From the sequence record PX393109.1: a DNA stretch of 64,000 nucleotides. The stretch is one strand, 5' to 3'. Positions 2,181-63,670 of the stretch are shown here, one piece after another. Within the stretch, counting starts at the first letter, position 1. Every line of letters starts with the position of its first letter. Below the pieces are notes generated by a model. It saw nothing but the letters and a program-made list of their open reading frames with translations. It made no database searches and was not told where the DNA came from. The stretch is from a phage. Both the position numbers and the translations under genes were made by a program.

Positions 2181-2216
2181 CCGCTCTTTTGTACGGTCAA
2201 AAGGCTGTTAAACTGT
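2181..2216 (+). promoter_or_regulatory. conserved intergenic motif copy 1 (putative phage promoter)
   Basis: CCGCTCTTTTGTACGGTCAAAAGGCTGTTAAACTGT. Confidence 0.5.
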
Positions 2217-2290
2217 AGAGGTTATTCCTATAGAGCATCTGATGGTGCTCTATGTGAATAGTCTTAGGAGATATTAGGAGATATTAAGAT

Positions 2291-2650
2291 ATGTTTGAGA
2301 AATTAAAATCTATATTTAAAACTGTTCCAGCAATTCCCTTACTGACTAAATCGGAAGAGCGACTAGCTTATGAGAATATGATCCGTACTGGGGACCCTAC
2401 CGAATTTATCAGAATGTTGGATAATGACGAAATCCGGATGATTCGTAAAGATACATGGACTTGGGTAAGCGCTAATGGTGTAATCCATGTCTATAACGAT
2501 ATTTACGGTCCGGAAGTTAAGCTGGGAGGAGTAAGTGCGTTAATTGACTGTAATGGTGATGCTTACGGTCTATCTTACGAAGATGGTAAGAGAGTATATA
2601 ACGCAATCTGGGACTCCTGCGACCGCTCCAGGAGGATGGCTCATGTTTAA
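2291..2650 (+). CDS. hypothetical protein
   Basis: 119-aa ORF downstream of motif copy at 2181-2216. Confidence 0.5.
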   Translation: MFEKLKSIFKTVPAIPLLTKSEERLAYENMIRTGDPTEFIRMLDNDEIRMIRKDTWTWVSANGVIHVYNDIYGPEVKLGGVSALIDCNGDAYGLSYEDGKRVYNAIWDSCDRSRRMAHV

Positions 2651-2813
2651 GTTACTTATTATAAGTAGTATTGTTGCTCGGGATGCTCCATCAGTTCACT
2701 CGGTAATTGCGGAATTTGAGACTAAAGATCAAGCAGATCGTGCCTACGACAAAATGGTGGAATCTGCCAACCCTCAGTCCTGGGTATCTAACAAAGTAGT
2801 GAAACTTTACTAA
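2644..2813 (+). CDS. hypothetical small protein
   Basis: ATG at 2644 after AGGAGG; ORF track lists a longer alternative-frame start at 2544. Confidence 0.35.
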
Positions 2814-2869
2814 TAGCTGAGTTCTATTAAGGCACCTAACGGCCTAATAGTTGCTCTTCCGTAAAACAG

Positions 2870-3270
2870 ATTCGATAGTCTGGGAAGAGCAGCTATATAC
2901 TCTCATTAAGTAATGCGTATACATAGGGCACGATTAAGTTACGTCTCCGGCTATGGTTGCATTACGAATAGTTAGGTAGTGTCCCTATTCAGATTGTCCG
3001 GAACTGGATAGAGGATGAAGGTATTGTCGAGACCTTAGTGGGGACTGATGCGAACTACACTAAGGTTTATACCCTCTCAACATTCTTAGGGGCATCTACG
3101 TAGTATACCTTGCGTCACGCGTAGGGTGAGCGAGTTAAAGCCCAAAGTGGCTTTAGGGAGCGAATCCCAGGGGGAGGCTCGGGTGGGCAAGGTCAGAGTC
3201 TCCGGAGGAGCTTAGTCTCGTGTACGCGGCGGCTCTGCCAGCCGCCGCTACACTCCAATTGGTTAAATTA
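2870..3270 (+). ncRNA. candidate large structured RNA element, copy A (paralogue of 56070-56490)
   Basis: ~500 bp with no ORF >=60 aa in any frame; GC-rich; perfect hairpins (GCGGCGGCT/AGCCGCCGC, AAAGCC/GGCTTT); shares blocks of sequence with the second element at equal spacing. Confidence 0.4.
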
Positions 3271-3342
3271 GATAAGGGGCCGGTAGTTCCTACGTCCATT
3301 AGTTTAGGAGTTATTATTTGATTATGTTGAGGAACACTATTA

Positions 3343-60648: not shown

Positions 60649-61908
60649 ATGTCAGAGATCACACACGTAGCAAGTTTGTTTAACCCTAAGATCAAAGAGT
60701 CTATGGGACTCACGATTAATGATCTTCCCTGGTCTACTGAGATTGCAAGAACCCTCGTGGAGTCCGGTATTAAGTTACAGGATGCCACCCCAGCTGTAAT
60801 TCACTCGATACTTGGTGAGGTATGTCCTGCAGAGGACATATCTAACTTTGTTGAGTTGGCCGAGAATTTCCGTCTGGTTAACGATCCTAAAGAAATTGAG
60901 AAGATTGTGAATAACTTCTTCCGATTCTATCAGGAGCGTAAACTGACAGAGATCATGAAAGCTAACTCCGAAGATACCGGTATGTTGATTGATCTGATTC
61001 GTGATATTCCACGTAGTCTGACTTCGACTATTCCGGTACATACTCTGGGTGGTCTGGATGTAGATACTGTAATGGAACATGACATCGGTGGCTTAGATGG
61101 CGTATTCCAGTCTACTCTGGATGTGGTTACTGAAGCCTCGGTATTTAATGGCTATATTCCTGGTCAGGTAATTCAGTTCGTAGGTCGTCCTGGTGGTGGT
61201 AAATCTGCTATCATGCTACAGGAAGTCCTCGGATTCGCTACACAGGGTCGTCGCACTTTATGGGTAGCTCTTGGCGACTTAACTCGCTACGACTTCTTAT
61301 CTCGTGCTACGGCGGTGATCACCGGTACTCCTTATGCTAAGGTTGTCGCCGAACTGAATAAACACCTTACCGACGACGTTCGTGAGATCCTGAACTATAT
61401 CGACCTGATTACAGTGCCTTCTCGTAGTCTCGGTGCTGAAGATCTGGAAGAATACCTGGATAGTTGTCGAGGTAAGAAGCGCTACGACTGTCTGGTAGTG
61501 GACTATGACTCCAACCTTAAGCGTCCGGAAACAGGAAGTATGTATGACGATGGTGGTCATATCTATGACATCCTGACTTCCATAGCTAAACCTATCTACG
61601 AACCTGCTCGCCTGGTGTTCGTTGCCTCTCAGCCTAAGATTCAATACTGGGGAGAGGAAGAACTGAATATCGATTCTGCTGGTGAATCTGCTCGTAAGCA
61701 GCAGAACGTAGATATGATGGTTACGGTCGGTCTGAGTCCTCGTAGTGAGAAGCACTGCGGTATTCTTAAAGTGGCTAAGTGCCGTCGTGGTAAGGACGGA
61801 ATTAGCTCACCTTGGATCATGAGAGCTCATGGTGAAATCGAACAGATTACTCGTGATGTGTATTCTCGCCTACAGACTTATGGTGGCAGAGGTGGTCGGA
61901 GGAACTAA
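60649..61908 (+). CDS. DnaB-family (RecA-fold) replicative helicase-like protein
   Basis: Walker A GRPGGGKSAIMLQ, Walker B-like LVVDYDSNL, arginine finger-like KCRRGKDG in a C-terminal ATPase domain. Confidence 0.55.
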   Translation: MSEITHVASLFNPKIKESMGLTINDLPWSTEIARTLVESGIKLQDATPAVIHSILGEVCPAEDISNFVELAENFRLVNDPKEIEKIVNNFFRFYQERKLTEIMKANSEDTGMLIDLIRDIPRSLTSTIPVHTLGGLDVDTVMEHDIGGLDGVFQSTLDVVTEASVFNGYIPGQVIQFVGRPGGGKSAIMLQEVLGFATQGRRTLWVALGDLTRYDFLSRATAVITGTPYAKVVAELNKHLTDDVREILNYIDLITVPSRSLGAEDLEEYLDSCRGKKRYDCLVVDYDSNLKRPETGSMYDDGGHIYDILTSIAKPIYEPARLVFVASQPKIQYWGEEELNIDSAGESARKQQNVDMMVTVGLSPRSEKHCGILKVAKCRRGKDGISSPWIMRAHGEIEQITRDVYSRLQTYGGRGGRRN

Positions 61909-62357
61909 TGGAAGTATTAGGAACTCATAACTACATTCTGCAATACGGAGGGAATTTCCCCTCCGTGAACGAAATGTATAAAGTCGGGAGGGCTCGTGGA
62001 GGAAGATCGTGGGTCTATCTCGACCCTAGCATCAAGGACTTTAAGGAGTGGGTGAAATCCTCCTTAGATATGCAGGGAGCTAGAGAAGCATTTCTGCCAT
62101 ATAAAGGTAAGTCCGTGATGTTGAATATCCGCATGATATTCTCGTTCAGCCAATCATTCTGGACTCGCGATGTATCTAACCTGATTAAAGCAGTGGAAGA
62201 TGCGGTCAAGGAAGCTATTAGCATAGATGATCGATTCACGATCACCTTGAATATGGATAAACTAATCAATGATAAAGATAATTACGAATACCTGATTTTA
62301 ATCACGGAGGTATGCGAACTAGACGAAAAGTCTATCTCTTTATCAAGTATGGGGTAA
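61908..62357 (+). CDS. RusA-like Holliday junction resolvase
   Basis: PSVNEMYK...RDVSNLIKAVEDAVKEAISIDDRF resembles the RusA catalytic D-x-D/K-A-x-x-D-A core. Confidence 0.5.
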   Translation: MEVLGTHNYILQYGGNFPSVNEMYKVGRARGGRSWVYLDPSIKDFKEWVKSSLDMQGAREAFLPYKGKSVMLNIRMIFSFSQSFWTRDVSNLIKAVEDAVKEAISIDDRFTITLNMDKLINDKDNYEYLILITEVCELDEKSISLSSMG

Positions 62358-62360
62358 TGT

Positions 62361-62588
62361 ATGAGTGTAAAGCTGTCCGATATCGTAGGTACCCTACCCA
62401 ACGAAGCCATGGTATTTATGGTGCTGAGTTCCATAAGTCCAGGCAACTCCATAGAGAGTAAATACGGAACTATTACTCGTGTTTCCGACGAGGAGTTCAA
62501 AATATCTATCAACGATGCAGTTAGCATTAAGCAGGATTTCGTGGATGAGGGTGATCCGGATGCTGGTCTGAGGAAGATATTTAAATGA
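62361..62588 (+). CDS. hypothetical small protein
   Basis: 75-aa ORF. Confidence 0.45.
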   Translation: MSVKLSDIVGTLPNEAMVFMVLSSISPGNSIESKYGTITRVSDEEFKISINDAVSIKQDFVDEGDPDAGLRKIFK

Positions 62589-63625
62589 TAAAAGAGATGG
62601 TAGAGATCCTCGAGAACGCTACCGTCGAAAAGCTAGTTGAATTGGTGAATAGGGAGATCAATTCTGTGAAGAGGGATTCTCGTACCCTATTCACCTTATC
62701 ACTAGCCATAGTCCGACGGGTGTGTACCTATTATAAATTCAGAGGACAGACCGAAGAGGCATTATCTTCTGCAGTGACCAGCTTAACCTACATGCTGCTC
62801 ACTACCACAGAAGAAGTTACACGGGATCATCTCGAGTCGATAATTAAGAAAGAAGTAAAGCAAGTATCGATCGACATGCTAGAACCCGAATTAGCCGAGA
62901 ACTCAGATTTTTACAAGGCTCTGGAGTTAGGCAATAGTTACAGCGTTAGACAGGAAGTGGCTGTCCATCGCTATGTTAATCTTTGGAATCAGTTCCTCCC
63001 TAACCGATTCAAACCTATCATCCAGCTATATTTAGACTGGGGAGTGGTTATGGTCGAGCATCTTGATCTGACAGACAGGATCATCGTGACTCGTATACTC
63101 GAACATATGGGAGCAATCGTGACCGACGTAGATATTAAAGCGATACAGGATCTGATTCCTAAGACGAATACAGAGAAGATGATGTTCCTGTCGATTCTGG
63201 CAGAGCACCATCCTGAACTATTCCTGCTGCTTACATCTATCAAAGACATAGGCAAATTCTTTACCTTCCTGGAACTACTGAATGGCCGGAAAGGGTTCCC
63301 GAAGGTGTCTAAGGTCGTCTCGATATTGGAAACAGTCCGCAAGAATAGTGTACTGGATTCTATTAAATCGGACATCTTCCAGGACAATGTGATGCTGGCT
63401 GTGATGCTGGACGGTATTACGTTCAACCCAGACAGTATTGGATTTACCTTTGCTGACTCAGTTCGTAAGGTAATCAAGGAAGAGACCAGTATCTACTTAG
63501 GTGCTCTGGATAAGTTAGCCAACCGAGTAGATAATGATCCGTCAGTATTGGTTCGTATGTACTCGATCATCAATACAGAAGAGCAGCATCGGGCTAAAAT
63601 GATAGACCGACTGCGTAAGGTGTAG
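62585..63625 (+). CDS. hypothetical protein
   Basis: 346-aa ORF, coupled start. Confidence 0.5.
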   Translation: MIKEMVEILENATVEKLVELVNREINSVKRDSRTLFTLSLAIVRRVCTYYKFRGQTEEALSSAVTSLTYMLLTTTEEVTRDHLESIIKKEVKQVSIDMLEPELAENSDFYKALELGNSYSVRQEVAVHRYVNLWNQFLPNRFKPIIQLYLDWGVVMVEHLDLTDRIIVTRILEHMGAIVTDVDIKAIQDLIPKTNTEKMMFLSILAEHHPELFLLLTSIKDIGKFFTFLELLNGRKGFPKVSKVVSILETVRKNSVLDSIKSDIFQDNVMLAVMLDGITFNPDSIGFTFADSVRKVIKEETSIYLGALDKLANRVDNDPSVLVRMYSIINTEEQHRAKMIDRLRKV

Positions 63626-63627
63626 TC

Positions 63628-63670
63628 CGCCGCTCTTTTGGAGGGTCGAAAGGCTGTTAAGGTGTCAGAG
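63628..63670 (+). promoter_or_regulatory. conserved intergenic motif copy 13
   Basis: CGCCGCTCTTTTGGAGGGTCGAAAGGCTGTTAAGGTGTCAGAGG. Confidence 0.5.

Follow-up and report, generated by a model that had tools for sequence, protein, structure and literature searches.

A strand-specific ~45-nt motif as a probable phage-specific promoter of early and middle genes in a rare group of coliphages

Promoters of several well-described kinds provide the background for a repeated element that we report here from 64,000 nt of the phage sequence record PX393109.1 (the window; positions are those of this whole stretch unless another genome is named). Extended -10 promoters of sigma70 (TGnTATAAT) place the transcription start 5-9 nt downstream of the hexamer. 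T4 middle promoters carry a MotA box, (a/t)(a/t)(a/t)TGCTT(t/c)A, at -30 and 11-13 bp from TAnnnT, and depend on sigma appropriation by AsiA and MotA. T7-like RNA polymerases are single-subunit enzymes of ~800-900 amino acids (aa). The late promoter of the AR9 non-virion polymerase, A(-11)ACA-N6-T A/G(+1), is read on the template strand of uracil DNA. Phages phiKZ and AR9 encode two complete, highly diverged beta/beta' sets, one of which is packaged; their early promoters, which the virion polymerase reads, are highly conserved, can be recognised by sequence alone and are AT-rich stretches of ~10 nt near -10, and their non-virion polymerase serves late genes from promoters without detectable sequence consensus (PMC7598289). 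We found no literature description of the element reported here, or of transcription in Escherichia phages vB_EcoM_IME392 (116,460 bp, hereafter IME392) and EP_H11 (111,373 bp), to which the window is ~89% identical.

Two + strand gene blocks of the window (1-10.7 kb and 52.5-64 kb) flank a - strand block of structural, late genes. We found that the 12-mer AAAGGCTGTTAA, the core of the element, occurs in 13 exact copies, all on the + strand and with 0 mismatches, starting at 2200, 3597, 6316, 7391, 52562, 53908, 54515, 54573, 54755, 55987, 57452, 58442 and 63649. This compares with 0.26 copies expected, and 0 of 100 dinucleotide-preserving shuffles reached 13. Every copy falls within the two + strand blocks and none in the late block, and no variant of the core with one mismatch is present on either strand of the window. 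Furthermore, a 47-nt weight matrix built from the IME392 copies and scanned over the window returned exactly 13 sites with scores of 45.5-66.6, none between 8 and 45 and none on the - strand, so that the motif is all-or-none without a degenerate tail. A preliminary description had counted 13 copies restricted to the + strand gene blocks, a count on which the exact core search and the matrix scan agree. In a k-mer census the core was the most over-represented word of the window, and the census yielded otherwise coding-repeat noise, with no second over-represented motif.

Alignment of the copies gives a conserved span of ~45 nt with the full consensus AAnnCCGCTCTTTTgnannnTCgAAAGGCTGTTAAanTGTnGGAgG. 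The motif is thus real and longer than the ~35 bp first proposed, and its 12-mer, initially called almost invariant, is fully so. It is composed of an upstream element CCGCTCTTT, ~10 variable bases, the invariant AAAGGCTGTTAA, two free bases and an invariant TG. The 12-mer has 42% G+C, the upstream element holds the G+C-rich CCGCTC, and GGAGG comes after many of the copies. On the + and - strands of the window, respectively, CGCTCTTT is found 11 and 2 times and CCGCTCTTT 9 and 0 times; because nearly every + strand occurrence of either falls within a full motif copy, their frequency outside full copies is at chance level. An earlier idea that the CGCTCTTTTG half can occur alone was based on two loose matches (52524-52537 and 56496-56511), which represent no excess above chance, and is not supported.

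The placement of the motif relative to genes is also specific. Considering + strand open reading frames (ORFs) of at least 60 aa, 12 of the 13 cores lie outside ORFs, with the ORF-free share of the + blocks being 15.6% (binomial P = 2.3e-9); the copy at 54515 is located within the 3' end of ORF 54006-54548, as had been noted before. Eight copies begin 0-7 nt past the preceding stop codon and three more overlap the end of the preceding ORF. For nine copies a start codon is found 20-90 nt downstream, mostly with a Shine-Dalgarno sequence, and this includes the start codons at 7424, 52593 and 58478 that were quoted at the outset, all of them real and equipped with Shine-Dalgarno sequences. Four copies, including a tandem pair 58 nt apart, head the ORF-poor stretch at 54.5-56.6 kb that holds both transfer RNA (tRNA) genes. 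The genes behind the motif copies belong to replication, nucleotide metabolism and DNA modification, and their products comprise dUTPase, dCTP deaminase, helicases, topoisomerase, DNA polymerase, thymidylate synthase and a 5-hydroxymethyldeoxyuridine (5-hmdU) DNA kinase.

The same distribution extends beyond the window. IME392 contains 24 exact cores and 1 with one mismatch, all on the strand of the non-structural genes, at about one per 3 kb over ~73 kb, and its 43-kb late block of structural genes contains 0. The first 50 kb of EP_H11 hold 10 exact and 2 one-mismatch cores, on one strand only. All 13 copies of the window have orthologues in IME392, and these are 95% identical within the motif versus 78-79% in the flanks, with the differences between orthologues confined to the variable motif positions.

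More distant relatives were reached by tblastn with the beta'-like protein of IME392, described below. Matches are sparse: Acinetobacter phage Ab1-TPeters (37.6% identity) and Ralstonia phage RP13 (35.2%), followed by more distant matches in Vibrio, Rhizobium, YerA41 and Carin-5 phages. Ab1-TPeters shares the two-block layout of the window and carries two classes of intergenic motif, both on the gene strand only and with a recognisably related core. Class A reads aAACTCAAAATTGAcyyCAAAAGCTGTTTAAAGTGT and has a 1-nt insertion between CTGT and TAA that shifts the TG by one base; class B reads CCTGTTTCTTAA-N10-AAaCCTGTTAAGnTGT. The two classes differ in their upstream half, which in class B is a near-repeat of the core. 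Copies resembling class B are found in Acinetobacter phage vB_AbaM_3098, where TTAAGGTATGAGrCG is also present three times. Within 40 kb of RP13 sequence, ACGACKCTAT-N12-ACCTTGTAAG appears four times, and three of these sites are clearly intergenic. On the gene strand, the relaxed pattern [GC]CTGTT(T)AAnnTG is found 11 times in the window, 22 times in IME392, 11 times in Ab1-TPeters and 5 times in vB_AbaM_3098 (49 in total); on the other strand the respective counts are 0, 0, 0 and 1. The architecture common to these relatives is GCTCT.T, 12-14 bases and C.TGT.AAG. Outside this lineage, IMG/VR gave single chance matches only to a 14-base pattern and none to the full pattern, scans of metagenomes and GTDB genomes gave 8 and 4 single chance matches, respectively, with no multi-copy locus, and a search of IMG/VR for loci related through the N half of beta' found none.

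Collectively, we consider it very probable that the motif is a promoter of early and middle transcription units, as was first suggested: all indirect tests run agree with this proposal, and we infer from the sequences the promoter activity, the start site and the identity of the reading polymerase. Our preferred reading, to which we assign a probability of roughly 0.6, is that of a phage-specific promoter with a specificity that is at least partly phage-encoded. The strongest argument for a phage-encoded reader is that the part of the motif that does not resemble sigma70 promoters is conserved in phages of three host genera. Under this reading, the motif would drive the non-structural units, including the tRNA and non-coding stretches, and transcription would start at the invariant TG or a few bases past it. 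The conserved block would then span about -40 to +2, as in promoters of phage polymerases, instead of representing a -35/-10 pair of sigma70. The reader would probably be a host-derived core modified by a phage beta' and/or another phage factor, since the lineage encodes a split beta' with no detectable beta or sigma. The late, structural block would use a different signal, one not recognised here.

The position of RNA hairpins offers a handle on the start-site register. Across 65 matches to the relaxed pattern in four genomes, a stable hairpin begins 0-3 nt past the invariant TG at 16 sites, versus 7.5% of random control positions (P = 1.7e-5), and this should be conservative because the site list includes some matches that are not motif copies. 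Several copies with long leaders have such hairpins, for example at 53924-53943 and 63665-63681, and in the hairpin that follows the core at 53908 the stem is kept in IME392 with a different loop. As these hairpins begin 0-3 nt past the TG, the start is predicted to lie nearer the hexamer than a sigma70 -10 would place it. In addition, at the IME392 copy at 14795, which closes the 10-kb operon encoding beta', the core is the 5' arm of a hairpin (14740-14805, - strand; -25.6 kcal/mol, z = -4.55) that is followed by a U-run. From its sequence this hairpin can terminate transcripts arriving from upstream, and a transcript that starts just past the core would be without the 5' arm and would escape termination. 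A weaker analogue is seen in the window, where TTAACAGCCT at 58494-58503 (+), 41 nt downstream of the copy at 58442, is the exact complement of the core. The two could form a hairpin that encloses the Shine-Dalgarno sequence and the AUG of ORF 58478 (-20.6 kcal/mol, z = -1.6), which is possible only in transcripts that contain the core. These hairpin and terminator arrangements would be understandable if the RNA began at the TG or immediately past it.

We then have to ask which enzyme could recognise such a promoter. The preliminary description had suggested looking for a phage sigma factor or activator; no sigma domain was found in Pfam scans of ~90 window and IME392 proteins, and what the relatives do encode is a split beta'. 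In IME392 the halves are at 16457-18025 and 19904-21418 (- strand), a region that the window does not cover, and match Pfam Rpb1 domains 1-2 and 3-5, and in Ab1-TPeters they are at 12831-14147 of stretch L125 and 22684-24207 of stretch L124. The two IME392 proteins are regarded as halves of one beta' because both match a single PHROG profile of 1,216 positions. The N half matches Escherichia coli RpoC with E = 4e-50 and the C half with E = 1e-24 (1e-28 for the best bacterial chain), the zinc finger and the NRAPSLHR and catalytic DVDGD (DxDGD) motifs are intact, and E. coli RpoC finds two matching ORFs in IME392 as well as in Ab1-TPeters. E. coli RpoB, on the other hand, matches no ORF of at least 60 aa at E <= 10 in IME392, Ab1-TPeters or the window, and a regular-expression search found no beta signature motifs. 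Proteins of the polymerase operon gave no matches to PDB with phmmer, and profiles of two conserved families neighbouring beta' (486 and 239 aa) gave nothing meaningful against PDB.

This split beta' without beta or sigma may represent, judging from the gene content, a hybrid-polymerase strategy that relies on beta' only; to our knowledge, such a strategy of subunit replacement has no description. That the single beta' is close to the bacterial one, unlike the two-set paradigm of phiKZ and AR9, suggests a hybrid enzyme built on host subunits. As a tentative and more specific version of our preferred reading, the motif could possibly be read by an RNA polymerase in which the split phage beta' takes the place of its host counterpart, together with the beta, alpha and omega subunits of the host. 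The host sigma70 enzyme would give basal starts through TGnTAAnnT, and the zinc-finger/zipper region of the phage beta', or a partner, would read AAAGGC/CCGCTCTTT, maybe on thymidine-hypermodified DNA, resulting in a self-amplifying transcription programme for the phage only. This logic appears to be shared by the E. coli, Acinetobacter and Ralstonia phages.

When compared with the described systems, the motif shares logic with jumbo-phage early, T7-type, extended -10 and T4 middle promoters and lacks a defining feature of each. Like the early promoters of phiKZ and AR9, it precedes early operons of a lineage that encodes beta' and is absent from late genes. It differs in being two-part and ~45 nt long, with a 12-nt invariant block of 42% G+C, and the lineage has one split beta', much closer to bacterial beta', and no detectable beta; with genomes of ~111-116 kb, these are also not jumbo phages. 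The late promoter of AR9 offers a parallel in its short invariant block with a conserved T-purine, possibly -1/+1, behind it, and in a non-canonical thymidine chemistry. Our motif has GCTGTTAAnnTG with no AACA on the gene strand, and is found at early/middle genes and not in the late block, unlike that promoter; no subunit resembling gp226 of AR9 was detected. Promoters of the T7, T3 and SP6 type are similar in being all-or-none and in having numerous, nearly identical copies that precede gene clusters in a single orientation, a conserved block that probably reaches the start, and related but distinct versions in related phages. The motif is, however, twice as long as these and has a variable middle. 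No gene for a single-subunit RNA polymerase is present among the ORFs of at least 700 aa in the window and IME392, all of which are otherwise assigned (DNA polymerase, SbcC, endosialidase tailspike, DUF4815 protein and chitinase-domain protein). With T4 middle promoters the motif has in common a host-type -10 combined with a phage-specific upstream element in front of non-structural genes; unlike them, it has no TGCTT and no MotA box, and its -30 region (alignment columns 15-24) is the least conserved. A sigma54 promoter (TGGCAC-N5-TTGC, with its GG and GC doublets 10 bp apart) was a further candidate, with a fitting GGC/TG spacing, and was rejected: the GC doublet is GT in most copies, the Ab1 versions have no GG (AGCTG, CCTG), and the implied start would be 3' of the Shine-Dalgarno sequences of the copies at 52562 and 7391.

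Several observations weigh against our preferred reading. The well-placed TGnTAAnnT could be read by the host sigma70 holoenzyme alone. There is just one beta' pair and no sign of a virion polymerase set: beta'-N has one locus in IME392 by tblastn, and ORFs of the late block have no Rpb1/Rpb2 matches. Furthermore, a motif copy (IME392 24650) stands before the beta' operon as well, which means that a reader strictly dependent on phage beta' would have to be packaged in the virion, or that the host enzyme gives basal activity. Concerning the start site, the mean minimum free energy (MFE) of the 40 nt downstream does not differ significantly from controls (-6.4 vs -6.5 kcal/mol), and among the hairpin tests the register-specific one alone is significant and uses a relaxed site list. 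Finally, the copies at 54755 and IME392 37569 have terminator-like hairpins within 30-45 nt that lie wholly past the presumed start; at 54755 this is CCGACTG...CAGTCGG followed by TTTTT (54799-54821), ~30 nt after the copy. Such hairpins could mark a short RNA or an attenuator, or be ignored by the polymerase.

The first of these points leads to the main rival explanation, in which the unmodified host sigma70 holoenzyme reads TGnTAAnnT as an extended -10 without a -35. The extra invariant bases would then bind a phage regulator (an activator or a shut-off repressor) or provide a context needed on modified DNA, and beta' would act late only. Here the geometry is right: the pattern TG-T-TAAnnT, which needs no -35, is present in 11 of the 13 copies (those at 52562 and 57452 end in C), and class B of Ab1-TPeters fits too. 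It also solves the bootstrap problem of a beta' operon behind a motif copy, and it is in agreement with the phiKZ/AR9 precedent of a non-virion polymerase that serves late genes, matching the motif-free late block (PMC7598289). On the other hand, 12 contiguous invariant bases, 6 of them upstream of the TG, together with the invariant G after the hexamer at '-6', go far beyond what sigma70 needs. There is no -35: CCGCTCTTT is conserved at the position of the TTGACA that sigma70 would require, at best 1-2 of 6 positions match at the canonical 16-18 bp spacing of the hexamers, and TTGTAC, 14 bp from TAAAGT, is not conserved. A sigma70 consensus scan listed 0 of the 13 motif sites, in line with the first impression that this is no textbook sigma70 promoter, and its sigma70-like matches in the + blocks are no more frequent than expected (23 vs 22.9 and 20 vs 24.5). 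Moreover, class A of Ab1-TPeters breaks the spacing of the TG, the parts conserved across genera (GCTCT.T, CTGT) are those that do not belong to sigma70, and hairpins beginning 0-3 nt past the TG would precede a start of the sigma70 type, which is expected ~7 nt past the hexamer. The initial proposal of an extended -10 with an upstream element consequently keeps its geometry and is weakened by the additional invariance, the spacing in Ab1-TPeters and the hairpin register, and we regard recognition by the unmodified host enzyme as rather unlikely.

A second alternative is that the motif acts in RNA, as a processing site of a sequence-specific endoribonuclease or an element of the 5' untranslated region on long polycistronic transcripts from a few unseen promoters. 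The copies are co-oriented with the genes, most of them follow stop codons with no terminator in between, which would allow read-through, and many are followed by GGAGG. The RNA evidence points elsewhere: RNAalifold on 24 independent copies predicts 0 pairs and 0 kcal/mol with no covariation, and a linear conservation of ~45 nt would be unusual for an RNase site. Two local stems, CGGTC-GAAA-GGCTG and CCGCC/GGCGG, were considered and dropped, each being possible in single copies only, and Rfam identifies two tRNAs only in the window. Start codons lie anywhere between 20 and 90 nt from the motif, four copies have no ORF behind them, and the tandem pair suits promoters better. The IME392 terminator built on the core would leave the genes downstream of it without any other start signal, and these blocks show no promoters of another class, all of which makes an RNA-level signal improbable.

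Similarly improbable is a pure DNA-binding site without promoter activity, be it an operator, a nucleoid or packaging site, or a site for thymidine hypermodification. A long, invariant and asymmetric motif would suit a binding site, IME392 has a weak PadR-like helix-turn-helix protein (E = 0.0066, below the Pfam threshold), and the lineage carries genes for thymidine hypermodification. Such a site does not, however, predict the co-orientation with genes, the placement between stop and start codons or the absence from the late block, and it leaves the fixed-register hairpins and the overlapping terminator unexplained. A selfish or recombinational repeat that plays no part in gene expression (resembling miniature inverted-repeat transposable elements or repetitive extragenic palindromes, Chi-like, or a homing target) would account for many near-identical copies and is very improbable, given the single orientation, the lack of terminal inverted repeats and of flank similarity past ~45 nt, positions kept between 89%-identical phages, diverged versions in distant relatives and no copy in the other genomes or metagenomes searched.

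We now describe the individual + strand copies and the predicted units behind them. In the left-hand block, the first copy (2179..2216, core 2200-2211, score 54.6) begins 1 nt past the stop of ORF 1945-2178, with the next ATG at 2291, and the second (3576..3613, core 3597-3608, score 55.5) abuts the stop of ORF 3343-3576, with the next ATG at 3637. The third (6295..6332, core 6316-6327, score 52.9) is 1 nt past the stop of ORF 5824-6294, and the ATG at 6359 that follows opens a gene for an Rv2179c-like 3'-5' exoribonuclease domain protein. The fourth (7370..7407, core 7391-7402, score 53.8) overlaps the last 15 nt of ORF 7035-7385; the unit behind it starts with the ATG at 7424 and extends to the dUTPase and dCTP deaminase genes.

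The right-hand block opens with the fifth copy (52541..52578, core 52562-52573, score 57.0), located in a divergent gap opposite the late operon (- strand GTG at 52453), with GGAGG immediately after it and the ATG at 52593. The sixth (53887..53924, core 53908-53919) is the closest to the consensus (score 66.6) and is followed by the hairpin at 53924-53943 and a GTG at 54006. The tandem pair consists of the seventh copy (54494..54531, core 54515-54526, score 54.6), within the ORF end mentioned above, and the eighth (54552..54589, core 54573-54584, score 58.8), which opens the ORF-poor tRNA region. After the ninth (54734..54771, core 54755-54766, score 45.5) no ORF follows: the hairpin with its T-run is succeeded by ~300 nt free of ORFs. 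Downstream of these three copies are the + strand genes for tRNA-Arg(TCT) (55541-55617) and tRNA-Met(CAT) (55763-55838), which have no other recognisable promoter. The tenth copy (55966..56003, core 55987-55998, score 47.5) is 3' of both tRNAs and precedes ~520 nt that are ORF-free and G+C-richer (56003-56530). The eleventh (57431..57468, core 57452-57463, score 52.1) begins 7 nt past the stop of ORF 56633-57424, with a hairpin 2 nt after the conserved G. The twelfth (58421..58458, core 58442-58453, score 47.3) overlaps the end of ORF 58121-58432 and precedes the ATG at 58478 that opens the + strand helicase operon (58478-62357). The last (63628..63665, core 63649-63660, score 59.6) is 3 nt past the stop of ORF 62585-63625 and is followed by the hairpin at 63665-63681 and an ATG at 63722.

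Three stretches of the gene strand are ORF-free and G+C-richer (2815-3340, 54772-55150 and 56003-56530), two of which begin right after motif copies. The segments 3111-3186 and 56317-56389 are 80% identical over 76 nt (E = 1e-12), including a hairpin TAAAGCCCrAAGTGGCTTTA. The stretches have no Rfam match and weak MFE z-scores (-1.1, -1.9), and they may be new phage non-coding RNAs. In the late block, inspection of the gaps by eye revealed nothing convincing as a late-promoter consensus. Two gaps on the - strand (20950-21080 and 24062-24145) both hold TTGTACAT followed by an AT-rich hexamer, with an additional TTGACA-N..-TATCAT in the second; these TTGTACAT elements could be late promoter elements, few as the sites are.

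Other features of the window and of IME392 relate to the lifestyle of these phages. A 2025 paper places IME392 with YerA41-type phages having hypermodified thymidine (PMC12686479). The corresponding gene set comprises dUTPase, dCTP deaminase, a 5-hmdU DNA kinase (PF18723, E = 3e-35), a thymidylate-synthase homologue, a glycosyltransferase and a PIG-L deacetylase, at 8025-8495 and 8781-9404 in the window and at 33740-34711, 31858-32931, 2737-3594 and 36879-37490 in IME392. Hard-to-sequence hypermodified DNA might be the reason for the scarcity of the lineage in IMG/VR, JGI metagenomes and GTDB genomes. An (AAT)9 microsatellite (8698-8724) is located in a small + strand ORF, for which it predicts a poly-Asn run; on its two sides are a terminator-like hairpin (8525-8552) and the gene for dCTP deaminase. 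The late block encodes a complete endosialidase tailspike of 995 aa (21074-24061, - strand), with End_beta_propel (E = 2e-204) and an S74 chaperone domain, and because this tailspike is full-length, the target of the phage, as far as can be read from the gene, is probably K1-capsulated E. coli. A second tailspike gene (18328-20949, - strand) adjoins it, and the two have the N-terminal adaptor domain in common. The presumably motif-driven units also contain candidate genes for counter-defence or host takeover (4995-5654 in the window; 15141-15647 and 6103-6522 in IME392), and these encode a NADAR domain protein (E = 8e-27), an Acb1-like protein that resembles RNA ligases and would act against the cyclic-oligonucleotide-based antiphage signalling system (CBASS) (E = 2e-6), and a PinA-like Lon inhibitor (E = 2e-9).

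Taken as a sequence feature alone, the motif is nothing unusual, since conserved promoter motifs are familiar from phages. If the motif is a promoter, it would provide the first handle on gene expression in the rare coliphage group formed by IME392, EP_H11 and the phage of the window, would define its transcription units and would serve as a template for finding the enzyme that reads it. It could also give a compact and highly specific promoter for orthogonal expression in E. coli. The related motifs of Acinetobacter and Ralstonia phages make the co-evolution of promoter and polymerase testable, and the hybrid polymerase, if true, would amount to a takeover of the host polymerase by subunit replacement.

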